NCBI GenBank assembly: GCA_963422385.1
Contig: OY729432.1
Coordinates: 1,989,136-2,053,135 of the forward strand
DNA length: 64,000 nt
Direction of reading: 5' to 3'
Origin: Candidatus Binatia bacterium
Lineage (GTDB): Bacteria > Desulfobacterota > Binatia > UBA9968 > JAJDTQ01
The stretch's first letter is position 1, and each line of letters starts with the position of its first letter. Under the pieces are notes generated by a model. That model did not search any database. It was not told the origin of the DNA and worked only from the letters and a program-made list of their open reading frames with translations. The position numbers were made by a program, and so were the translations under genes. Shown here piece after piece: positions 20,087-37,599 of this stretch.

Positions 20087-20593
20087 ATGGAACCGGTACT
20101 GGCTGAGAAGATCGTCCACGGCTTGAAGGCGGCGGGTATCGATTTCCTGACCTACCTGCCGGAGAGCCGCCTGAGCCAGATCCTGCCGCTGTTGCGCGAG
20201 GACGGCGCCGTGCAGATGGTTGCGGCCGCCAGCGAGCAGGAGGCCGTCACCATCGCCGCGGGCGCGGCCCTCGGGGGCAAGCGGGTAGCCTGCTACATGG
20301 AGAGCACGGGACCCTACGTCTCCGCCTATTCCCTGCTTACCGTGGGAAAGCAGATGGGCGTGCCGATCCTGTTGCTCATCGGCTTTCTGGGCAGTTTTGC
20401 CGATCAGAGGAACAGCTTCCTCTACGTGTCCATCGGCATGCGGATGATCCCCACCCTCGAAGGGCTGGGTCTCGAATACCGCGTGGTCGAGAACGCGGAG
20501 AATCTCGAACGGCACATCAAGGACGCGCAGCGGGTCAGCGACTCCATGCGGGCGCCGGCCGCCCTGATCTTCTCCGGGGAGTTCGCCCGATGA
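20087..20593 (+). CDS. ThDP-dependent decarboxylase alpha subunit (ComD/phosphonopyruvate decarboxylase-like)
   Basis: GIDFLTYLPES, EQEAVTIAAGAALGGKR...MESTG. Confidence 0.85.
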   Translation: MEPVLAEKIVHGLKAAGIDFLTYLPESRLSQILPLLREDGAVQMVAAASEQEAVTIAAGAALGGKRVACYMESTGPYVSAYSLLTVGKQMGVPILLLIGFLGSFADQRNSFLYVSIGMRMIPTLEGLGLEYRVVENAENLERHIKDAQRVSDSMRAPAALIFSGEFAR

Positions 20594-21192
20594 TCCGGCG
20601 CGACTGTCTCGAGCTCATCGCGCCGTTGATGACCGATCAATTGGTGCTCAGCTCCCAGAGCGGGCAGCGCATCGAATGGTTCCACCTGTCGCAGCACGAG
20701 GGGAACCTGCTGGTGGGAATGATGGGATGCGCCACGGGCGTGGGCATGGGACTGGCGCTGGCGCTGCCCCACCGGCGCGTCATCGTGCTCGAATCGGACG
20801 GCAGCGTCCTGCTGTCGCTGTTCAATCTTCCGACCTTGGGCAATCTCGATCTGTCCAACCTGTCGGTGTTCGTGTTCGACAACGAGGTCTACAGCGGCAG
20901 CACCATGAGCGAGCCCACGGCAACGTCCGGCAAGACCGACCTCGCCGCCGTCGCCCGGGCCTCGGGAATCGAAAACGCCGTGACCGTGGACGACCTCGAA
21001 GGCTTCAAGGAGCACGGCCTGCCGGGTGTGACCGGAGACGGGCTCCACTACGTGGTATGCAAGGTCGAAGAGAGCCTCTGGCACCGGGAGATCCCGCGTC
21101 CCAGCGTCGATCTGGCGGAGTACAAGTACCGGTTCGTGCGCTATATCGAGCGGACCGAGGGGAAGACCATCCCCTTCATCGGCTTGGGATAG
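20590..21192 (+). CDS. ThDP-dependent decarboxylase beta subunit (ComE-like)
   Basis: GMGLALALPHRRVIVLESDGSVLL...FDNEVY; ATGA overlap with alpha subunit. Confidence 0.85.
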   Translation: MIRRDCLELIAPLMTDQLVLSSQSGQRIEWFHLSQHEGNLLVGMMGCATGVGMGLALALPHRRVIVLESDGSVLLSLFNLPTLGNLDLSNLSVFVFDNEVYSGSTMSEPTATSGKTDLAAVARASGIENAVTVDDLEGFKEHGLPGVTGDGLHYVVCKVEESLWHREIPRPSVDLAEYKYRFVRYIERTEGKTIPFIGLG

Positions 21193-26263: not shown

Positions 26264-27435
26264 TCAGCCACGGTACGACTGCACCAGCCGATCGACCATG
26301 GCAGGCAACGTCACGGCCTGAATGTCCTTGGCCAGCGGGAAGCTTTCCTTGCCGGCGTGCACGACGAACTTCCGGTACGGCCGCAGGTCTTCGCAGGCGC
26401 TGTGGAATCCCTTGGAGACCGTAGGTGCGGAGCTGCGTTCGATCTCTACCGCCCAGAGTTCGCCGGCGCCGACGTCGATGATCCAGTCTACCTCGGCGCC
26501 GCCGGATGTCCGGTAGTAGCCGTATGAGGCTCGTCTCGGCAGCGCGCTGATCATGTTCTCGATGACGTAGCCTTCCCAACTGCCGCCGATGACGGGATGC
26601 CCGAACAGCTCATCCATGGTCTCGATGCCCAGCAGCGCATGGCAGATACCGCTGTCCCTGACATGGACCTTTGGCGCCTTGACGAGCCGTCTTCCCAGGT
26701 TGCTGGTCCACGGCGGCAGCCGGCGCATCAATAGGAGATCGACCATCAGTTCCAGATACCTTGCGATGGTGACGCCGTTGACGTCGAGTCCGCGCACCAG
26801 TGCCGCGGCGTTGTGAATCCGCCCTTGATTGTGGGCGAGCATGGTCCAGAACCGGCGTAGCGTCTCGGCCGGTATACGCGGCCCGAACTGTGGGATGTCA
26901 CGCTCGAGGTAGGTGCGAATGAAGTTCAGGCGCCACTCCAGGCTCTCCCCGTCACCGGGAGCAAGGTAGCTTTCCGGCAAACCGCCTCGGCGTCAGAGCC
27001 GGTGAAGCTCGCCCATGGGCACCTCTCCGGCGTTGAAGGCATGCAGTTCGCAGTGGGCGACACGGCCTGCCAGGGTCTCACTCGACTGTTTCAGCAGGTC
27101 CATGGAGGCTGAGCCGAGCAGCAGGAACAGCGCAGTCCTCTTGCCGGCCCGGCGGCGTTCGTCGATGATGCTGCGCACGGGGCGAACAGACCCGGCGTAC
27201 GGTGTATCCCGTCGAGAATGAGCAGGTCGTCGGCGGTTTCCTCGCAGTAGCGTTCGATGTCGGTCGTCTTGGCGAGGTCGCTTGGCCGCTCCAGGTCCAG
27301 ATAGACGGCATTGCGCTCGCGGGCCACTTCCCGGGCGAGGGTTGTCTTGCCGACCTGACGTGGCCCGATCAGAACAACGGCGGGGTTTGTGTCCAGCAGC
27401 CGGTTCAATGTCGGTTTGATGTGGCGATCAATCAT
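26264..27435 (-). pseudogene. AAA_14 ATPase + DUF4143 gene, frameshifted
   Basis: GPRQVGKTT, FLLLGSAS...SETLAGR and GFPESYL...RLVKAPK...SWEGYVIEN...AEVD lie in three different ORFs. Confidence 0.88.
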
Positions 27436-27632
27436 CCATGTAAATATAACTTGTCATGTCATATTTGCATAGTTTCTGCGTTGGCTCTCTTGATATCCGC
27501 GGAAGGCGGAGCTGCCAATATCGGCGACCAGGCTTGTTGCCCGTATCCCACACGGGTGTATGCTGGAAATGTGCGGAAATTCCGCCACGGGGGTGATGTG
27601 CCGACCGGCAATGGACGCAGAGGGTGGTGTCT

Positions 27633-28805
27633 ATGAAGAGTTCTGAATTGACCGGACGGCGCCGGTTTGGCCGTCTGTTGCGCTGTCTCGCCGGCGCTGT
27701 CGTCCTGACCCTTGGTTGGTCGGGGATCGTGAACGCGGACACCGTGCAACAGACCGAGCGCCACACGGTGCGCGTCCGTATCCTGACCCGCGGGCTCGAA
27801 CACCCGTGGTCGCTCGCGTTTCTCCCCGACGGACGGATGCTCGTCACCGAACGGGCGGGCCGGCTACGTTACGTCGCCGCCGACGGCACGCTGGATCCCA
27901 CCTCCATTTCCGGCCTTCCCGAAGTGGTGGCGGAGAGGCGCCAGGGCGGGCTGCACGACGTGGCGCTGCATCCACGGTTCTCGCAGAACCGCCTCGTCTA
28001 TGTCGCCTACGCCGGCAAGGGCGACGGCGGCCATGGCACGGAGCTGGCCCGGGGCCGGCTCGCCGGCTACCGCCTCACCGGCGTGAAGGTCCTGTTCAGA
28101 GCGTTGCCGAAGTCGTGGGGAGGCCGTCACTTCGGCGGGCGCGTGGTGTTCGACGGCGACGGCCACGTGTTCCTTACCTTGGGGGATCGGGGTGACCGGC
28201 CGCGCGCGCAGGACCCCGGCGACCATGCCGGCTCCATCATTCGCCTCACCGAGGACGGCGGCATACCGCGGGACAACCCCTACCGGTCGCTGGCCGGTGC
28301 GAGACCCGAAATCTACACCCTCGGCAACCGTAACGTGCAGGGCGCCGCGATGAATCCCTGGACCGGCGAGCTCTGGACCCACGAGCACGGTCCGCAGGGC
28401 GGTGACGAGGTCAACGTCATTCGTGCCGGGGTGAACTACGGCTGGCCGGTGATCACCTACGGCAGAAACTACGGTATCGGCACGCGGATCGGCGAAGGGG
28501 CTCGCAAGGAGGGTATGGCTCAGCCGCTGCATCAATGGACACCGTCCATCGCGCCCTCGGGAATGGCGTTCTACGACGGGGACCGGTTCCCCGCGTGGCG
28601 TGGCAACCTGCTGGTGGGCGCGCTCAAGTTCCGCCTGCTGGTGCGTCTCGAGCTCGATGGAGAGCGAGTCGTGCGGGAAGAGCCGATACTCGAGGGCGTC
28701 ATCGGCCGGATCCGGGACGTGCGGGTCGGCCCGGACGGGTACGTCTATCTCCTGAGCGACGAGCGGAATGGGGTAATCGCGCGTCTGGAGCCTGCCGGCG
28801 GCTGA
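27633..28805 (+). CDS. PQQ-dependent sugar dehydrogenase (GSDH/YliI family)
   Basis: GLEHPWSLAFLPDG, HFGGR, GNRNVQG, EHGPQGGDE, NYGWP, SIAPSG, GRIRDV. Confidence 0.93.
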   Translation: MKSSELTGRRRFGRLLRCLAGAVVLTLGWSGIVNADTVQQTERHTVRVRILTRGLEHPWSLAFLPDGRMLVTERAGRLRYVAADGTLDPTSISGLPEVVAERRQGGLHDVALHPRFSQNRLVYVAYAGKGDGGHGTELARGRLAGYRLTGVKVLFRALPKSWGGRHFGGRVVFDGDGHVFLTLGDRGDRPRAQDPGDHAGSIIRLTEDGGIPRDNPYRSLAGARPEIYTLGNRNVQGAAMNPWTGELWTHEHGPQGGDEVNVIRAGVNYGWPVITYGRNYGIGTRIGEGARKEGMAQPLHQWTPSIAPSGMAFYDGDRFPAWRGNLLVGALKFRLLVRLELDGERVVREEPILEGVIGRIRDVRVGPDGYVYLLSDERNGVIARLEPAGG

Positions 28806-28874: not shown

Positions 28875-29429
28875 CTACGCTCGCGCAATGCGACAGGTTC
28901 TCCAACTCTTCGACCAGTGTTCATCGGACTGAACATGGCCCGCGCGAACGCTCTTGCAGACGTTGAGATGGAACTCGCTGGCTGGAAATGGCCGCGCCAA
29001 CCTGATCACTACGCCTTCCCTGGCGCCGCCTAGCGCAGACGGCTCCGTGTGAGCATGGCTGACGAAGTCCCGGATCTCGCTCACTGACCGAAACTCACCC
29101 TCATACAGAACCGGGACCAACGGGATCTCCCGTTCCTCGGCGTGGCTCACGAGTGCCTGGAACGAAGAGAACGAGCCGTCCGCGAAACGAAGCGCAAAGG
29201 CATAAAAGGTCTCGTTCTCCGACACGGGGTCGTACTCGATGCTGTGAACACCGTAGATGTCCTCACCGTAGAGAAAGATGCCCGGCTCCGTGACCTTCCA
29301 CGCATGGTGCTTCCTGACCATCGCCATCCACTTGCCGATGGAGGGCGCGGAGACGCCACGCCCGTACATCTCACCCCTGTGGAGGAGCGTATTGCCGCCG
29401 TCGAGCTTCTCGGTGACGACGTCCGTCAA
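28875..29429 (-). pseudogene. ATP-dependent RNA ligase family protein, 5'-truncated
   Basis: VTEKLDGGN (KxDG), YGE, FYAF, REGVVIR; reading frame begins only a few codons before motif I. Confidence 0.75.
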
Positions 29430-30361
29430 CGTTGTTTGGGGCTGTTCTGATGCGTTTGCACACGGGCTTGGTAGAGGTTGGTCCCAGACTTGATTTCCTC
29501 AATCCGAAACGAGTGGATCAGACCCAGTTCCCCTAGCCAATGGGCAACTATTTCCTGGAACTTTGTACTCTTGCGTCTGCCCCCTGGGGGTTTCAACTTT
29601 TCGCCGCCTGCGGTAGCTGCCAGAATGGCATCGACGGTGCGTTCACCGCGTGGCCCCACGCCATCGGGGCTGGCCCCAGACCAGCCGTACTGGCGTTGCG
29701 GATACTCTCGGAGTGGGCCGAGATAGAATATCCTGTCCATCAATGCTTCGTACTCGGTTTCGAAGTCGCTCAGAAGACTCGTGTTTTGATAGTAGGTCCG
29801 GGCTTGGTCGGGAAAGAGGTGGGTTTTGACTGGACCCGGCAGATCTCCCGGTCGCCCTCGATTACGACGGAACTTGAACGGAGGACGGCCTTCTGCCGAG
29901 TTGAGCTCGAACACACTGGGGTTCTCCGCGTTGGGTTCGATACCGAAATCGGTGTCGGAAAACCTGTATTTCATATGGCGTGCCGAGAGACGCGAGTCTT
30001 CCAATCCTACCTGGGCGCTCAATTGCAAACGGCTTCCCTCGTATTTTGCGTTCCTTCGATGGTCCTCGAGTTTGAGCGGTTCCGGGAGCTTCCAATCCAG
30101 CGTCCAGGCGATGTTGTCCGTCACCTTGCCTTGATGCACAATGGCTTCGTAGGTGCCCAGATTTACCAGTTGGTTCGGTCCTCCGAAGTCCAGCACGCGA
30201 CCCCGGTCCGTCGCATTTTTCGTCTGCTTGAGCAAGAGCAGAAACTGAAGCACGCTGCTCTTGCCGGAACTGCTCGCGCCGAAAAGGCCGGTGACCTTGC
30301 CGAATTGCATATCCAGCTTGCGCCACGCCTTGAAGTTGGTGACCTCAAGTCTGTCCAACAT
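29426..30361 (-). pseudogene. AAA_21/DUF3696-type ATPase, 3'-truncated
   Basis: NFKAW, GLFGASSSGKSS, YLGPLREYP; ends before the DVGFG signature/Walker B region. Confidence 0.78.
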
Positions 30362-30384
30362 TCGTTGCTCTCCCTAATTCGGAA

Positions 30385-30453
30385 ACCACCCTCGTTTCGC
30401 CCTGAGACAGCGCCCTTCGACTTCGCTTCGCTACGCTCAGGGCGAACGGTGGT
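30385..30453. repeat. Inverted-repeat element (REP/MITE-like)
   Basis: TTCGCCCTGAG (30396-30406) / CTCAGGGCGAA (30436-30446) with outer ACCACC/GGTGGT. Confidence 0.6.
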
Positions 30454-30525
30454 CGAGCACGATACGCCGGAGTTTGCTGATTAAATAAACAAGATTACAA
30501 GAAGACCAACGAGAGTGAAGAGCGC

Positions 30526-31812
30526 CTACCCGGCATCCCCCTCCGCTTTCAAAGAGTCCAGCGCCTCCTGAACCAGCTTGCGCCGCAGCGCCTTCTCCTC
30601 GTCCGCGGGGAGGCTCGCGTCTCCGGCCACGTGGACGATGCCGTGTCCCAGCACGACGCGGTTGGAGCCCACCATCTTGGCGATGGGCAGGGCGGAGGTC
30701 ATCTGCACGACGGGGACGCCGGCCTTTTCGAGCTCGGTGGTGATCGCAGCGCCGCTGCGAGTGCTGGTGCCTCACGTGGATGTGAGGATCACGGCATCGA
30801 CCCCCTCGCGCTTCACCTTCTCCGCCATCTCCCGGCCCAGCCGGCGGGTGTTGGACAGGGGATTGGACAGGCCGGAGGTGGAGAGGAACTCGCCGTGTAT
30901 CCTGCCCACCGTGCCGTCCTTCTCCAGTTGTCTCAGGGCGTCGAGGGGCACCAGGCGGTCGGGGTCGGCTTGAACGAAGCGGGGGTCATAACCCCCGTGG
31001 GAGATCTCGTAGTCCTCGCCCGCGAGGTCGTCGGCGCCGGAGATGTCGTAGGCGCCCCAGCGGGTGGCGGCCATCCCCTCGATGGCGTCCGGATTGCCCT
31101 TGGGCACCAGCCCGCCGTCGGTGATGAGCATGACGGTGGCCTTGGAGATGTCGTCCACGCCCCTGGGCCTGGCCACGGGCTCGAAGGAGGTGACGGGCAT
31201 CTCGGTGTCGAACGGCTGGTTCCGGACCTTGGCCAGCATCATGTCCACGAGACGCTCGGCCGAGGACTTGCCGACGAACTGATCCCGTATCAGCCCTCGG
31301 GTCAGGTAGCCCTCTTCGCTTGGCAGGCCGATGGCCTCTCCGGCCGCCAATTTACGGGCCAGCCCGGCCATGCGTTGGACGACCTGCTTCATGTTGGCCG
31401 CATTCCGCCCGGAGTCGATGATGTAGAGGCCTTCCCGGTAGAGGTCCACCCCCGGGTTCTCCTCGTGCATGCCGGTGAGGGCGGGGATGCCGAGCTCGGT
31501 CCGTACCGCGCTGCACAGGGCGCCGGCGGCCATGCCGTAGCGGCCGGCGTCGAAGCACGGGCCGGCCACGAACAGGTCCGCCCGGGCGCTCCGGACATGC
31601 TCCAGGACCGCGGCCGTCAGTTCCTCCTGATGCTCGACGGCGTGGTTGTCGCCGCAGATCAGGGTCCTGACGACGGTGGCCCCTTCAGCGCAGGTCTGCT
31701 CCAGCAGACGGCCCGGGCCGACGGCGTTCCCGACCGCCCTGAGCGGGTTCCCGGCTTGCTCCTCACCGCCGATTCCTCCGAAGAACTGGTTGAGGTAGTG
31801 AACGATTCTCAT
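30526..31812 (-). CDS. grdB: Glycine/sarcosine/betaine reductase component B selenoprotein (GrdB/F/H family); Sec at TGA 30772-30774
   Basis: MRIVHYLNQFFGGIGGEE, AGPCFDAGRYG, HGGYD, DPDRLVPLD, VILTST-TGA-GTSTRSG. The frame continues with the family C-terminus to the stop at 30526. Symbol marks family only. Confidence 0.9.
30744..30771 (-). promoter_or_regulatory. Putative bacterial SECIS element
   Basis: UGA + 11 nt + stem UCGCAGC / loop GGC / GCUGCGA. Confidence 0.7.
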
Positions 31813-31852
31813 GGGTTGCCTCCCTGTTCGAGACTCGCGGCACGCGCGATGG

Positions 31853-31880
31853 GCGCGGGCGGGCTTAAACCTGCTCCTAC
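31853..31880. repeat. GTAG-type REP-like palindrome
   Basis: Minus strand reads GTAGGAGCAGGTTTAAGCCCGCCCGCGC. Confidence 0.6.
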
Positions 31881-31915
31881 AACGGGTCATCGCGCGCTGT
31901 CGCGCTGCCGGACAT

Positions 31916-33196
31916 CTAATAGACCATGGCCCGCAGCCGCGACGCGCCTTGCTGGTTGGTGACGCCCGCCACGTTCATGGCGCCCAGCTCGCGGACTCCG
32001 GCCAGAAGCTCGCCGATGGCCGGGTTTGCCGCGATCACCCGCCCGGCGGGCGGTACCTGCCACCGGGTGTCGTTGCCTCCGCCGTAGACGATGGCGTTGA
32101 CCTCGGGGAAATTGAACAGCAGGGCCGACTCCACCCGGCGGTCCCGCGACACGTCCGAGACCATCACCGCGGTGCGGATCCCCTGGGACTCCAGCAGCCG
32201 CGCGGACTCCGCCAGATCCGCATGGGGTACGCCGCCGCCGTATTTGGTCAGCACCGCGGCGTCGGCGTTCAGTGCCCACCGGACCAGGGACGCGGCGGTG
32301 CGACAGTTCCGGTCCCGGTCGGCGTTGTCCGATCCGGCGACGCTCGCCACCGTGCCGACGAAGTTCAGCTCCCCGGCGTGGTGCCTGCGATAAAGCTCGG
32401 TGATGATGGGATGGTTCTGGTAGCCGTAGGTCTCCGCGCCTCCCATGGAGGTGTAGTAGGAGGTCACCAAGGCGCCGTCCAGCCACTCGTCCGGATGCAG
32501 CAGCACCGGCAGCATCCCGGTGGTGTTCAGCCCGTAGAGCACCGGCTCGTCCAGCTCCGCCTGCCGTTGGCGGGAGAAGATCTGTCCCACGTACGCCACC
32601 CGGGGCAGTCCCGGGCGGCCCGGCGGTCCGGGGTTGACAGGCTCGAAAGTGCGGCTTTCGGCGGGTGCGTGCGGAGCCGCGGCTTGGGCGAGATGGACTG
32701 CTGTCCTGAGTCCGGCCACCCGCTTGACCCTCTGGGCCGCGTGGCCTTCCTTGCCCGGCGCCATACGGGGTATGAGGACGAGGTGGTGCAGCTTGGAGTA
32801 CCCTGAGCCCTCCGCCGCCGGTCCGGTCATCTCGAGGACGCGACCGATGGAGCCGCGCGATCCGCCCGCGGCGTGCTCGTCCAGGACCGTGACCGCCATG
32901 CCGGACAGCACGTGGGTGACGCCCATGCCTGCGGTCAGGGGAGGGCCCAGGATACCCGGGAAGTCGGGACTGGCGCCGGAAGCCTTGGCCCTGGGCTCGA
33001 TGATGTCGAACACCGGCCCGGCCCGGCAGTCCTCACCCGGAGCGACGAACTCGAAGGTAACGTCGCTGAGCGCTCCGTCTTCGAGCAACAGCCCGCGAAG
33101 CTGATCCGCATCGATGTCGAGGGTCGTTCCGTCGAGCCGGGTGGAAGGGCCGAACCGAAGGGCTCGCACCGGGTGGTACGCCAGTGTCAGATTCAC
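31916..33196 (-). CDS. Reductase component B alpha/beta subunit (GrdE/G/I-like)
   Basis: DIIEPRAK, GVTHVLSG, LPRVAYV, LLHPDEWLDGALV, TYGYQNHPII, ELNFVG, GGGVPHAD; GGAGG RBS before GTG. Confidence 0.88.
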   Translation of the reverse strand: MNLTLAYHPVRALRFGPSTRLDGTTLDIDADQLRGLLLEDGALSDVTFEFVAPGEDCRAGPVFDIIEPRAKASGASPDFPGILGPPLTAGMGVTHVLSGMAVTVLDEHAAGGSRGSIGRVLEMTGPAAEGSGYSKLHHLVLIPRMAPGKEGHAAQRVKRVAGLRTAVHLAQAAAPHAPAESRTFEPVNPGPPGRPGLPRVAYVGQIFSRQRQAELDEPVLYGLNTTGMLPVLLHPDEWLDGALVTSYYTSMGGAETYGYQNHPIITELYRRHHAGELNFVGTVASVAGSDNADRDRNCRTAASLVRWALNADAAVLTKYGGGVPHADLAESARLLESQGIRTAVMVSDVSRDRRVESALLFNFPEVNAIVYGGGNDTRWQVPPAGRVIAANPAIGELLAGVRELGAMNVAGVTNQQGASRLRAMVY

Positions 33197-33303
33197 GCGG
33201 TGACCTCCATCTCGCCACAGTCGGCCACATGATTCCACATTCCCACGGCGATGGCAAAGCGGCATGAGCGCCGCCACGGGTGACGGGTCCGGGGACCCGG
33301 CGC

Positions 33304-34821
33304 CTATCCTCGCCTCGGTGACGGAGAGCCGAGATGACTGGCGTAGGCGGCCAGTGCGGTGCCGTACTCTGCCGCGTGGACCCCGTGGTCCGTGAAGTCG
33401 CCGTGATGACACTGGAGTGCCCACAGAGCGGCGTCGCAATGCTCCGGCTTCCCGGTGAGGTCGTGGAGCTTCAGGAAGAAGCGCGCCGCGACGCCGTTTT
33501 CGGTGACCCGTGTCAGGGGATATTGAAGGAATGCGGGTCCCTTCTCGGCAATGTCGAAGAAGCCCCCTGCCGAATTTTTCAGGCTGGCCCGGATGAATCC
33601 CGCTAGGGCTTCGGCGCGTTCGAGAAAGGCCGGTTCACCGGTGGCTTGGAACCCATCCGCCAGGGCGCGTCCCGTGAGAGCCTGGTCCGTGAGGAGTCCC
33701 CGCAACCGGGCCGCGTCGTCGAAGTAGTGGGCGATGCCGCGGGAGCCGTCCCAGCAACGCTCCAGCAGGAACCGCAGTGTTTCCAGGGAGCGTTCCTCGC
33801 AGTCTTTGCGTCCCAGGGTCCCGGCGGCTCGCAGACAGGCGGAAACCGTGCGGGCATTGGCGTCGGTGTACATCCAGGGATCGGTCATGGAGAACATGCC
33901 CCGGCTCTCGTGGAGCATGGATCCCGCGGGCGTGTCCCGGCCTGGTGTGATGCGGATGTAGTCGCGGCAGCCGTGGAAGTACGGCTCGGCGGGGTCGCGG
34001 AACCCACGGTCCAGGTAGTCCAGAATCTCCTCGGCCAGCTCCCTGAAGAACGACTCCCCGGTCAGTTCGAACACGTGCAGGGCGTTGTCCAGCAGGCCGG
34101 CGTGGTCGGACAGCAGTTTCTCGTGGTGAGGCTCGCTCCAGTCCGGTTTCGACGAGTAACGAAAGAACCCGCCCTCCGGGTCATGGGTCTTGCTCTGGTG
34201 CATGCGGTGGAGGGTTATGCGGACGTGGTTGAGGTAACGCGCGTCGCCGGTGGCCGCATGACGCTGCAACAGGAATTCGTTGGCCTCGCAGTGGGGAAAC
34301 TTTCGCTCCGTTTCGTAGCCGCCGTGAACGGGATCCGCCAGGTTCCGGATGATCTCGGCGATTTCGTCCACCGCCTCCGGCCGAACGGTGGTCACGCGAG
34401 GTGGTGGCGCTACCGGAGGGCCCGGGGCCGCGGCGGGCTCGCCTTCCTGATAACCGACGTGAAGTCGCACCAGGACGTCGCTGAAGTCCCGGGGAGACAG
34501 GTAGTTGACGCTCGCCAGAAAATCGCCCTCGGCGCTCAGGAACACGATGGTGGGCCAGCCGTTCCGGTTGTAGCGCACGTCCAGGTCCGGCCGCTGGGCG
34601 TCCTCCACCCGGACCGGAACGAAGTACGCGTTCAGCAATGCCACGTTCTCGGTGTCGGAGAAGGTGGTCTCATCCATGCGTTGGCAAATGCCGCACCAGA
34701 ACGCGCCCAGGTAGAGCATGACCGGTTTCTTCTCGGCGCGCGCGCGGTCGAAGGCCGCCGTTCCCCAATCCGACCAGTGGATTCGGTGGGCGCCGTTGGG
34801 GTTGGGGGAGAAGCGAAACAT
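33304..34821 (-). CDS. DUF255/YyaL-type thioredoxin-domain protein with helical barrel
   Basis: WCGICQRMDETTF, RPDLDVRY..GWPT, KFP, GGFFRYS..PDWSEPHHEKLL. Start could be 34860. Confidence 0.88.
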   Translation of the reverse strand: MFRFSPNPNGAHRIHWSDWGTAAFDRARAEKKPVMLYLGAFWCGICQRMDETTFSDTENVALLNAYFVPVRVEDAQRPDLDVRYNRNGWPTIVFLSAEGDFLASVNYLSPRDFSDVLVRLHVGYQEGEPAAAPGPPVAPPPRVTTVRPEAVDEIAEIIRNLADPVHGGYETERKFPHCEANEFLLQRHAATGDARYLNHVRITLHRMHQSKTHDPEGGFFRYSSKPDWSEPHHEKLLSDHAGLLDNALHVFELTGESFFRELAEEILDYLDRGFRDPAEPYFHGCRDYIRITPGRDTPAGSMLHESRGMFSMTDPWMYTDANARTVSACLRAAGTLGRKDCEERSLETLRFLLERCWDGSRGIAHYFDDAARLRGLLTDQALTGRALADGFQATGEPAFLERAEALAGFIRASLKNSAGGFFDIAEKGPAFLQYPLTRVTENGVAARFFLKLHDLTGKPEHCDAALWALQCHHGDFTDHGVHAAEYGTALAAYASHLGSPSPRRG

Positions 34822-34896
34822 GGCATGAGTATCCCGGAAGTGAAGTGCGTGGACAACCATGCGCAGGATTTTCCGTTGTCGGCAAGGCGACGACCT

Positions 34897-34925
34897 GTAG
34901 AGGCGGGTTTGAAACCCGCCCGTGA
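34897..34925. repeat. GTAG-type REP-like palindrome
   Basis: GTAGAGGCGGGTTTGAAACCCGCCCG. Confidence 0.7.
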
Positions 34926-35032
34926 CCCATCCCGGGCGCGTCGGCTCGCGGCCTTGCCGGACCCCGCGGGCCTGTGGCGGGCGCCGGGCGTCTGTAGTAG
35001 AGAGAGGCCTGAAACCTTGCGAGGGGAATGCC

Positions 35033-36403
35033 ATGGCTTTTTCACGGATCGAATTGCCCGCGACGGTATCGCGCGAACAGACCCTTCGCGACTCCGAAGC
35101 GGTGCTGGCCATGCCCGACATTCCGGTCAGTGTCGAGGAGGACATCGTCCGGATCGAGGCGTTGGGAATGGAATGGGACCTGGGCATGATGGTCTACCAG
35201 CCTCGGGACGAGGCCCGGATCCCATGCGGCGCCGACGGCAGGAAGGTAGGAATCTTTCTGCTCCACGGTGGCTCGGGCGACTACAAGACCATGGAACGGG
35301 TTGCGTTGCTGGCCGCGGGCAAGTTCGGCTTCAAGGTCTTGAGCGGGACGTTTCCCGGCCGCTTCTGTTTCCCCGAGCCGAGCCGCGACTGGCCGGATGA
35401 CACCATTCACGGGGACGGGAGTGTCCGGACACCCATCTGGAAGAGGGGAGAGCTGATTGCCCGTGATGAATACGACGTCGCCCGGGACCTCTCCATGCGG
35501 CCGCGTTACGGCGCCCGAACCGTTGCCAGGGCCAAGCCCGAAACCAACTTCTATTACCGCATGGCTGCGTGGCCGGTGGCCTTTGAAGAGGGCATGAAAG
35601 AGGCCATGCGCAGGCATCTGCCCGAAGGGGCGTATTCGATCTACGGGGAAGGCCATTCCACCGGCGGCCCCTTCGTCTCCATGCTGTCCCAGCGCGTGCC
35701 GAACTTTGCGGGCGTCGTCGCCACCGAGCATACGCCTTTCGGCTACGTCGGAGCCTTGAGGGACAACTGGAGCGGCTCTTTGGGAAAGGTTCCCGGTTTC
35801 GAGCGCGTGAGCACCGACGACGCGGTCCGGAGCGACCCCTTCAACGAGCTGTACATCCGCACTTGGCGCGATCTGGCGCGCTATGCCGGTCCCGAGGCCC
35901 TGGGGCAGCAGGGCCCGGTGGCGTTGATGCAACTGCCCATGCTGATGGAAGAGGTTCTCGACGACTGGGACCGGTCCCGGTCGCGGCCGCAGTTCAAGGC
36001 GGAATACGTGATCACCCACGACATCGCGGCTTCGTTGACGGAGGCCGCGAAGGTCAGCGCCCGGCGCCTCGGCATGAACGGCGCCGAAACCGAAGCGCTT
36101 GTGAAGCGTTACCGGGGTTATCCGCGCGAGTTGTCGGGACCGGACGCACCGCCGCTGCCGCCGTTCCTGTTCATCATCACCAAGGACAGCCGGGACCACA
36201 GCCCGGAGGTCTACAAGGAGGTCGTCCTGCCCTCCTTCGCGGCCATGCGTCCCGCGCCGAAGACCCATCTGACGCACTTCGCGGCCGGCGTGCACAGCTT
36301 CTGGAAAGCCGAAGAAGGACTGCCGCAGGGCGTGGCGCCGGTCGCCGTCAAGCTGTGGAGCGACGCCATCACGGGCGGCTACTTCGCGGCCGCTGGAGTG
36401 TGA
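35033..36403 (+). CDS. Uncharacterised alpha/beta-hydrolase-fold protein
   Basis: LLHGGSGD, GHSTGG nucleophile elbow, late GVHS His; strong GC3 codon bias. Confidence 0.7.
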   Translation: MAFSRIELPATVSREQTLRDSEAVLAMPDIPVSVEEDIVRIEALGMEWDLGMMVYQPRDEARIPCGADGRKVGIFLLHGGSGDYKTMERVALLAAGKFGFKVLSGTFPGRFCFPEPSRDWPDDTIHGDGSVRTPIWKRGELIARDEYDVARDLSMRPRYGARTVARAKPETNFYYRMAAWPVAFEEGMKEAMRRHLPEGAYSIYGEGHSTGGPFVSMLSQRVPNFAGVVATEHTPFGYVGALRDNWSGSLGKVPGFERVSTDDAVRSDPFNELYIRTWRDLARYAGPEALGQQGPVALMQLPMLMEEVLDDWDRSRSRPQFKAEYVITHDIAASLTEAAKVSARRLGMNGAETEALVKRYRGYPRELSGPDAPPLPPFLFIITKDSRDHSPEVYKEVVLPSFAAMRPAPKTHLTHFAAGVHSFWKAEEGLPQGVAPVAVKLWSDAITGGYFAAAGV

Positions 36404-36453
36404 GGCCCTGGCCCCGACTCTCTCCGGGGAAAGCGGGCTCAAGCCGAGGTTGT

Positions 36454-37599
36454 ATGATGAAGTTTTCCTTTTTCATGATGCCGATACACGATCCGTCGGA
36501 GAATCCGGCCTTGGCGTACGACCGGGACATCTCGCTGATCCACTACGCGGAAGAGATGGACTTCGACGAGTTCTTCATCGGCGAGCACCATTCGGGCGGT
36601 TGGGAAAACATGCCGGCCCCCGAGCTGGCGCTGGCCAAGGCCGCGGCTCACGCCAAGCGCATACGCCTGGGCACCTCGGTTATCAACACGCCGTTCCACC
36701 ACCCGTTCCACGTGGCCGAGCGCATGGCGTTCCTTGACCACCTTACGCGCGGTCGCGCGATCCTGGGCGTGGGCCCAAGTGCGCTGGTCACCGACAAGAA
36801 GCTGTTCGGCCTCAACAACGAGATGCTCCATCCCATGCTGACCGAATCGGTGGAAGTCATCGTGCGGCTGCTGGAGTCTCCCGAACCTGTCGATCATCAC
36901 GGCCGGTTCTGGAACTTCGAGGGCATGCGGCTTCAGCTTCGCTCGTATCAGCAGCCGCGTATGCCCTTGGCCATCGCCTCCTCGGGAAGCGCATCGAGTC
37001 TGGAGCTGGCGGGCCGGCACGAGATGATGCTGCTCTCACCCGCGGGCAAGAACCGCTGGCGCAACCCCGCCCATGCCGAGCAGTGGAAGTCCGTCGAAGC
37101 CGCCGCGGCCGAGGCCGGCAAGACCGCCAGCCGGGACAACTGGCGTATCGCCACGAGCGTCTATCTGGCGGAGACGCGGGAGCAGGCCTGGGCCGACGTG
37201 GAGGCGGGCATTGCCCGGGATATGCAGTACTTCTTCGCCATCGGCCTCAAGACGCCCTACGAGTCCTATCCCAACCAGCCGGCGTCGGAGATCACGCCCC
37301 GCTCGGCCGCGGACCGGCGGGACTGGATCATCGGTACTCCGGACGACGCCATCCGCCACATCGAGCGGCTGCAGCAGGAGACCGGCGGCTTTGGCGGCCT
37401 GATGCTCACCACCCACGAGTGGACCCGCAGCCACAAGCTTCGCCATTCCCTGGAGCTCTTCGCCCGCTACGTCATGCCGCATTTCCGCGGCCACACCTGG
37501 AGTTTCAGGGACGAGTGGGACCGCCTGCGCCAAGCCGCGGCCGGGAGCGGCGTGAAGCTGCCGGACAACGGCCGTCCCAGCAACCTCGCCAACAGCTAG
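36454..37599 (+). CDS. LLM-class flavin-dependent oxidoreductase
   Basis: FIGEHHSGG, IRLGTSV, HPFHVAERMAFLDHLTRGR, IIGTPDD, LELFARYVMPHF. Confidence 0.93.
   Translation: MMKFSFFMMPIHDPSENPALAYDRDISLIHYAEEMDFDEFFIGEHHSGGWENMPAPELALAKAAAHAKRIRLGTSVINTPFHHPFHVAERMAFLDHLTRGRAILGVGPSALVTDKKLFGLNNEMLHPMLTESVEVIVRLLESPEPVDHHGRFWNFEGMRLQLRSYQQPRMPLAIASSGSASSLELAGRHEMMLLSPAGKNRWRNPAHAEQWKSVEAAAAEAGKTASRDNWRIATSVYLAETREQAWADVEAGIARDMQYFFAIGLKTPYESYPNQPASEITPRSAADRRDWIIGTPDDAIRHIERLQQETGGFGGLMLTTHEWTRSHKLRHSLELFARYVMPHFRGHTWSFRDEWDRLRQAAAGSGVKLPDNGRPSNLANS

Follow-up and report, generated by a model that had tools for sequence, protein, structure and literature searches.

The 64,000-nucleotide (nt) stretch of a Candidatus Binatia bacterium genome analysed here, called the window below, corresponds to C1:1989136-2053135 of a genome that consists of a single contig (3.95 Mb, 64% G+C, 98.3% complete). 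It carries a putative three-gene operon encoding a paralog of the DUF255 family, which we call P255, a GrdE-like protein and a GrdB-like selenoprotein. We put the probability at roughly 55% that this operon encodes a substrate-specific 'protein B' together with its dedicated redox partner P255, and thus belongs to a glycine-reductase-type selenoenzyme system that lacks GrdD and is poor in cysteines. The module is probably not stand-alone, because two genes for its likely partners, grdA and grdC, are located elsewhere in the same genome. A preliminary description, made from the sequence of the window, had noted three co-directional genes with short gaps; all three indeed lie on the minus strand, separated by 107 nt and 103 nt. 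The features of the operon are as follows.

33304-34821, minus strand: P255, DUF255-type paralog of 505 amino acids (aa) with the motif AFWCGICQ (Thioredox_DsbH, PF03190, 78.9 bits)
31916-33196, minus strand: GrdE-like protein of about 426 aa, the alpha subunit of 'protein B', start codon placed by alignment with orthologs (Gly_reductase, PF09338, 247.7 bits)
30526-31812, minus strand: GrdB-like selenoprotein, 428 codons, coordinates including the stop codon (GRDB, PF07355, 438.7 bits)
30772-30774, minus strand: in-frame TGA, codon 347, assigned as selenocysteine (Sec) codon in the motif TSTUGTSTRSG
30745-30759, minus strand: hairpin of the selenocysteine insertion sequence (SECIS) type, CGCAGC-GGC-GCUGCG, beginning 12 nt past the TGA
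34822-35032, no strand: intergenic region between P255 and a divergent 493-aa open reading frame (ORF), presumed promoter region of the operon, defined by the gene ends only

The GrdB-like and GrdE-like proteins

The GrdB-like protein scored above the cut-offs of the broad family profiles (PF07355, 438.7 versus 22; TIGR01918 'various_sel_PB', 482.2 versus 65.45) and below those of glycine reductase (TIGR01917, 442.5 versus 602.2), sarcosine reductase GrdF (NF040794, 470.1 versus 800) and betaine reductase GrdH (NF040795, 432.4 versus 775). Its frame is readable only by read-through at the TGA, which gives ...ILTSTUGTSTRSGAAI..., and Sec347 aligns with the Sec of GrdF at the STUG position. Each of the 120 homologs among the matches listed either stops ahead of the TGA or falls short there in some other way, most being 346 aa long, which means that gene callers cut these genes at the TGA codon. 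The host genome encodes selA (582.9 bits) next to selB (383.1 bits), and two tRNA-Sec genes were predicted by ARAGORN (C1:1335876-1335961, 86 nt; C1:3019815-3019909, 95 nt).

The evidence for a SECIS element comes from codon counts in 62 copies of orthologous genes (58 different DNA sequences) that were taken from the window, the related loci and the locus L112. The TGA was kept in 58/58 distinct sequences, and the codons +5, +6, +8 and +9 after it were frozen as CGC (57/58), AGC (58/58), GCT (58/58) and GCG (58/58), the sole exception being a CGT that preserves a G-U pair of the stem. Nearby residues of equal conservation use three to four codons, as does the alanine at +17 after the TGA (GCC 43, GCG 12, GCA 2, GCT 1). 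Across the orthologs the frozen codons build the hairpin CGCAGC-GGN-GCUGCG. This hairpin was present in the minimum free energy fold, but the 76 nt after the TGA had a z-score of +0.87, so the folding energy is unremarkable and it is the codon counts that support the SECIS element. Judged by sequence, the TGA at 30772-30774 is read as selenocysteine. The same frozen nucleotides follow the TGA in another GrdB type (39-41% identical, with GrdE downstream) at the metagenome loci L126, L140 and L170, which indicates that this SECIS sequence is common to more than the clade described here.

The preliminary description had called the protein a GrdB of the UxxS type. The full motif is UxxSxxS, found as UGTSTRSG in all 59 motif matches within the 80 loci with P255 that are described below. 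The clostridial controls, Peptoclostridium acidaminophilum GrdF and Acetoanaerobium noterae GrdB, have UGTCTRCG, and the family motif is given as UxxC or UxxCxxC in PMC13188914; both of these cysteines are thus replaced by serine in the GrdB-like protein. In a tree of 24 sequences, built without any GrdH or FarB sequence, the 16 UxxSxxS sequences formed one group with a support of 100/99, apart from four clostridial and three UxxCxxS sequences. The GrdB-like protein also lacks both substrate motifs published for its relatives (PMC9751293), i.e., the glycine motif AHGGxD[QTAP]...RV[IL]PxD...TxGNxTxV, which the A. noterae control matches, and the sarcosine motif IHGGYDR...TTGTGT, which the P. 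acidaminophilum GrdF control matches.

The GrdE-like protein scored above the cut-off of its family (PF09338, 247.7 versus 22.2) and far below those of GrdG (NF040793, 177.5 versus 780) and of FarE (NF053623, 139.8 versus 675). According to PMC9908766, Cys242 is the source of the pyruvoyl group in GrdE. The segment GNC242VAPC246 of P. acidaminophilum GrdG aligns to SYYTSMG in the GrdE-like protein, and no cysteine occurs in this segment in 55/56 of the linked GrdE-like proteins, compared with its presence in 3/3 controls. Since the cysteines of the pyruvoyl precursor are missing, self-cleavage as a proprotein is not expected of the GrdE-like protein; this alpha subunit would remain unprocessed and without a pyruvoyl cofactor. 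A sequence search of the PDB gave no solved relative of either the GrdB-like or the GrdE-like protein.

The glycine and sarcosine reductases of P. acidaminophilum and Acetoanaerobium are composed of GrdE/GrdG with GrdB/GrdF, GrdA, GrdC/GrdD and TrxA/TrxB. The system described here shares with them homologous GrdE-, GrdB-, GrdA- and GrdC-type proteins, Sec at the same STUG position, the CxxU motif of GrdA and a SECIS element past the TGA. It differs from them by UxxSxxS in place of UxxCxxC, a GrdE-like subunit without Cys242 and Cys246, neither of the substrate motifs, no GrdD found, no thioredoxin genes in the cluster but a DUF255 paralog instead, and a host with a haem-copper oxidase.

Closer parallels are found in two other reductases treated in PMC10838667. 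According to that paper, FarB of the Cloacibacillus fluoroacetate reductase lacks the CxxC, FarE lacks the two processing cysteines, and the same two losses are reported for GrdI; the CxxC is described there as protective of Sec, and several modules of the protein B kind are said to supply a single shared A/C system. FarE/FarB of Cloacibacillus therefore resembles the present pair in both cysteine losses and as a separate protein B module feeding shared GrdA/GrdC. It differs in the low FarE profile score given above, in an operon reported to carry a transporter gene and a radical-SAM gene in place of one for a DUF255 protein, and in hosts that are described as strict anaerobes with GrdD (PMC10838667, figure legend). 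The nearest functional analogy is betaine reductase GrdH/GrdI, whose alpha subunit is reported in the same paper to stay unprocessed and which can do without a Schiff base. The difference from GrdH/GrdI lies in the score of the GrdB-like protein far below the GrdH cut-off, a comparison made by profile score.

P255 and the partner genes

P255 consists of an N-terminal thioredoxin fold with WCGIC (Cys43/Cys46), the thioredoxin motif already pointed out in the preliminary description, followed by a variable proline-rich linker and a C-terminal (alpha/alpha)6 barrel. It is a cytoplasmic DUF255/Thioredox_DsbH paralog, with a PF03190 score of 78.9 versus a cut-off of 27 over profile positions 18-127 of 163. 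Its top match was PDB 7tkv, both by sequence (E 3.3e-30) and by Foldseek (E 4.9e-20). The predicted model, with a mean predicted local distance difference test (pLDDT) of 71.5, served for the fold class only, and the fold search related its barrel to epimerases and GH76 enzymes. The host also has a canonical DUF255 protein of 684 aa. P255 shares with this copy and with 7tkv the thioredoxin fold followed by the (alpha/alpha)6 barrel, but it is distinct: it is 30-36% identical, has 505 aa versus about 684 aa, has neither the internal insert of some 60 residues nor the final stretch of roughly 70 residues, carries WC(G/R)(I/Y)C in place of the canonical CHWC, and is genomically tied to GrdE/GrdB. 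The CxxC cysteines are invariant in the seven aligned P255 orthologs, which come from four phyla. The P255 ORF is about 575 aa in Chloroflexota and Entotheonella loci (L089, L094, L096; 9001-10731) and about 500-505 aa in Binatia. Because some relatives showed TGAs and P255 matches that were 'split', a frameshift or a selenocysteine within the CxxC had been considered; this was rejected, as the G021 copy translates intact with a longer linker and WCGVC.

Scanning one genome per species with the P255 alignment gave 80 loci, from Binatia, Dehalococcoidia and other Chloroflexota, Nitrospinota, Entotheonella, Verrucomicrobiia and others. GrdE and/or GrdB stood beside P255 in 72/80 loci, and both in 62/80. 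The linkage that the preliminary description had proposed was thus borne out, and it occurs in four gene orders: P255>E>B in 30 loci, divergent in 30, E>B>P255 in 10 and B>P255>E in 2. Only two of the eight pairless loci (L060, L072) have full 9-kb flanks. Among 41 related genomes of the same order the best match was of the P255 type in 32, and in 28 of these a GRDB match lay on the P255 contig no more than 10 kb away; in the remaining four (G028, G034, G037, G039) the P255 contig has no GRDB match, and in G034 and G039 P255 stands at the contig start. Our results show that the DUF255-type CxxC gene is linked to the GrdE/GrdB pair well beyond chance and across phyla. P255 remains with grdE-grdB even when grdC-grdA is elsewhere (72 loci versus 8).

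The preliminary description had found no GrdA, GrdC or thioredoxin reductase in the window, had proposed an orphan, stand-alone reductase without GrdA, GrdC and GrdD, and had named in advance a complete set of these genes plus trx elsewhere in the genome as the finding that would speak against this proposal. Whole-genome searches located grdA, grdC and trxB outside the window and did not locate grdD; the finding named in advance was thus made for grdA, grdC and trxB but not for grdD, and the stand-alone proposal is not supported. The sole GrdA (C1:488208-488648; CFVU, i.e., CxxU; NF040748, 202.8 versus 130) is encoded directly downstream of the sole GrdC (C1:486660-488084; NF040746, 497.4 versus 450), about 1.5 Mb from the window operon. 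TrxB is encoded at C1:1944579-1945484, 44 kb ahead of the window, and no thioredoxin domain was found among the eight small ORFs scanned beside grdC-grdA. GrdA was present in 34/41 relatives and GrdC over its cut-off in 33/41, with the same distribution and always adjacent, and GrdA was present in 31/32 of the P255-bearing relatives and in 5/5 distant carriers. The loci with grdC and grdA beside P255 number 8/80; in those of Chloroflexota grdA-grdC abuts grdE-grdB-P255, and G025 and G036, from two other families of the window's order, have a cluster of P255 with grdC-grdA-grdE-grdB. The UGTSTRSG GrdB of G025 is the only GRDB-family gene of that genome, which makes this cluster the best argument that such a protein B works with GrdA and GrdC.

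On the other hand, GrdD had no match in a profile search of the host genome (98.3% complete), no hit over the cut-off in any of the 41 relatives (best 28.8 bits, PlsX-like) and none in the 5 distant carriers. The clostridial positive control gave 581.1 bits at about 3.5 kb from the control's grdE, and the clostridial GrdD as a tblastn query reached a best E of 0.12 in the host genome and found nothing in the 80 related loci. The host has a second GrdB/GrdE pair at C1:3809125-3811770 (L007:9123-11773), in the order grdB>grdE, with UGTCSRSG (UxxCxxS) and with Asn-Thr in its GrdE-like protein where GrdG has Asn-Cys242; this pair falls below all specific NCBIfam cut-offs. Glyoxalase-fold genes, a zinc alcohol dehydrogenase and a TctA transporter lie near it.

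Proposed mechanism and alternative readings

The steps proposed for the mechanism are modelled on those of betaine reductase GrdHI and of fluoroacetate reductase FarEB. The substrate would be of the type X-CH2-COO-, with a leaving group good enough to dispense with a Schiff base. Attack of Sec347 on it would give a Se-carboxymethyl intermediate, which may then be handed to the Sec of GrdA and further to GrdC. The product would be acetate or an acyl thioester rather than acetyl phosphate, the latter being improbable because GrdD is lacking. The CxxC of P255 would deliver reducing equivalents to protein B and keep, or restore, a selenol that is devoid of cysteines in cis; P255 may reduce GrdA too, and it could be recharged via thioredoxin reductase and NADPH. 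We infer this role of a trans-acting thiol partner of protein B from three observations, namely that P255 stays with grdE-grdB and not with grdC-grdA, that both of its cysteines are invariant, and that it is tied to a GrdB without cysteines of its own. It is close to the 'resolving partner' that the preliminary description had suggested for the DUF255 protein.

Several observations weigh against this reading. The CxxC loop of the P255 model is at pLDDT < 50, and the larger (alpha/alpha)6 domain is unaccounted for by a purely redox role. The reverse linkage, from the pair to P255, is incomplete and weaker than that from P255 to the pair: the frozen SECIS pattern was found in at least 120 metagenome contigs, 80 of which were examined, and among the nine fully informative loci (long flanks on both sides) P255 was present in four and absent from five, one of the five being a different GrdB type (39% identical). 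No thioredoxin-like stand-in was found among the 33 ORFs scanned at the loci without P255 (L112, L124, L125, L141, L201). G035 (98% complete) has a UGTSTRSG GrdE/GrdB pair without P255, and G001 (95% complete) has P255 and the pair without a match to GrdA or GrdC. Finally, the host GrdA and GrdC could serve only the second pair at 3.81 Mb.

Some of these points would fit a P255 that is not a redox partner at all and acts through its barrel instead, either by binding or converting a substrate or precursor, or as an assembly or maturation factor of protein B, its thioredoxin fold being structural or regulatory. The barrel makes up about three quarters of the protein, is conserved and resembles enzymes, and no function of any DUF255 protein was found in a literature search at listing level. 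About half of the informative UGTSTRSG loci have no adjacent P255 and G035 has none at all, which under this alternative would make P255 dispensable or conditional. We consider it unlikely, since both CxxC cysteines are invariant in 7/7 orthologs from four phyla, the motif has moved from the CHWC of the family to the thioredoxin-like WC(G/R)(I/Y)C, and the paralog is tied to exactly that GrdB type which lacks its own two cysteines.

An ordinary reductase of the betaine type, functionally GrdH/GrdI and acting on glycine betaine, with P255 merely as a local substitute for thioredoxin, appears more doubtful. An unprocessed alpha subunit is the reported hallmark of GrdI (PMC10838667), several close homologs are labelled 'betaine reductase' by the Joint Genome Institute (JGI), and many carriers belong to marine or sponge-associated lineages. 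However, the score against the GrdH profile (NF040795) is 432.4 where 775 is required, the UxxSxxS sequences form a tree group of their own, though in a tree without GrdH, and the surroundings of the pair showed no betaine transporter; what recurs there is a molybdenum (Mo) hydroxylase, a Rieske oxygenase and a family-5 binding protein.

The stand-alone system of the preliminary description, in which GrdE/GrdB and P255 would work without GrdA and GrdC and the CxxC of P255 would resolve the Se-carboxymethyl intermediate or an oxidised Sec on GrdB to free the product, is quite improbable: it could draw on the rarity of grdC/grdA at the loci where P255 accompanies the pair, on the distance of 1.5 Mb between the pair and grdC-grdA in the window's genus, on G001 and on the second pair of the host as the possible real client of GrdA/GrdC, but it is opposed by the co-occurrence of GrdA with P255 in nearly all relatives and in every distant carrier, by the G025 run and the Chloroflexota clusters described above, and by the state of G001, a draft of 80 contigs.

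Significance and neighbourhood of the operon

Glycine-reductase-type selenoenzymes are textbook enzymes of strict anaerobes, in which they yield ATP via acetyl phosphate. Here the same machinery is trimmed, without GrdD, without the protective cysteines and, as predicted, without the pyruvoyl cofactor, and it occurs in bacteria with a haem-copper oxidase; subunit I of this oxidase is encoded in the host genome, in agreement with the aerobic host that the preliminary description had suggested. GrdC can evidently exist without GrdD. The variant has carriers in at least five phyla, among organisms of soil and sea, and with its SECIS pattern in at least 120 metagenome contigs it may be a common environmental selenoenzyme whose substrate and product would be other than those known. 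The linkage of P255 to the pair is the first tight genomic association for the DUF255 family, which has been without a function, and if P255 is a reductase in trans, this would be a lead to the function of the wider family. Public annotation has to be corrected as well, as the protein sets examined cut these genes at the TGA and some of the products are labelled glycine or betaine reductase. A literature search at listing level turned up neither a paper connecting DUF255 with glycine reductase nor one on a system without GrdD, and none on glycine reductase in Binatia; the system thus still appears undescribed, as had been suggested.

More tentatively, P255 could be the first DUF255 protein with an assignable job, that of a dedicated selenol or selenosulfide reductase in trans. 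Together with GrdA and a GrdD-less GrdC it might then form an unrecognised Stickland-type reductase in aerobically respiring bacteria, which would cleave some X-CH2-COO- compound that is abundant in the environment, such as a haloacetate or a betaine-like onium compound, and would yield acetate or an acyl thioester instead of acetyl phosphate. It would serve the acquisition of carbon or nitrogen, or detoxification, in bacteria of soil, ocean and sponges. This is a possibility that we hold with less than even confidence.

Around the operon, a consensus scan found no promoter-like site in 34822-35032. The scan for promoters and terminators gave one promoter-like site in the gap between P255 and the GrdE-like gene and one terminator-like site within P255, neither count being clearly above that in shuffled sequences, and an Rfam scan of 30300-35400 with E up to 1 gave zero matches. 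The aerobe-type neighbours named in the preliminary description were recovered in part. The following two are present, and no Rieske protein was found among the 51 window ORFs scanned, which are a part of all its ORFs.

inside ORF 35863-37599: luciferase-like monooxygenase (LLM) oxidoreductase (PF00296)
27624-28805: pyrroloquinoline quinone (PQQ)-type sugar dehydrogenase (PF07995)

Within the window's genus, synteny with the operon extends to the divergent 493-aa ORF, the LLM oxidoreductase and an isochorismatase-like gene. The 493-aa ORF (34922-36403, plus strand) has no match in Pfam or NCBIfam, contains a GHSTGG motif like a nucleophile elbow, and is syntenic with the operon in 20 loci of the same genus. 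FrsA-like alpha/beta hydrolases were seen near the pair in L112 and L141. Many Binatia-type loci (L057-L107, e.g., L062:2-5522 and L075:2091-14705) have on the flanks of the module genes for a Mo-hydroxylase of three subunits, for the alpha and beta subunits of a Rieske oxygenase and for a family-5 solute-binding protein, together with a patatin-like and a TPR-S gene. This neighbourhood hints at a catabolic pathway, the loci being mutually related and not independent. In L079, P255 stands between the Mo-hydroxylase and the oxygenase without GrdE/GrdB.

Directly downstream of grdB (28875-30361, minus strand), an AAA_15/AAA_21 ATPase ORF of 311 aa abuts an ORF of the RNA ligase family. In loci of the same genus the two matches are about 1 kb apart, which suggests that the ATPase of the window may have lost its C-terminal part. 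A frameshift has probably broken another ATPase gene, of the AAA_14/DUF4143 type (26264-27435, minus strand), into the ORFs 27091-27435 and 26264-26980, and a similarly split copy lies near grdC-grdA (L006:1602-2943). Farther away (20087-21192, plus strand), two ORFs that overlap, 20087-20593 and 20590-21192, encode the N- and C-terminal thiamine pyrophosphate (TPP)-binding domains, an arrangement like that of TPP decarboxylases with two subunits; an M20 peptidase gene flanks them on one side and a RidA-family gene on the other.

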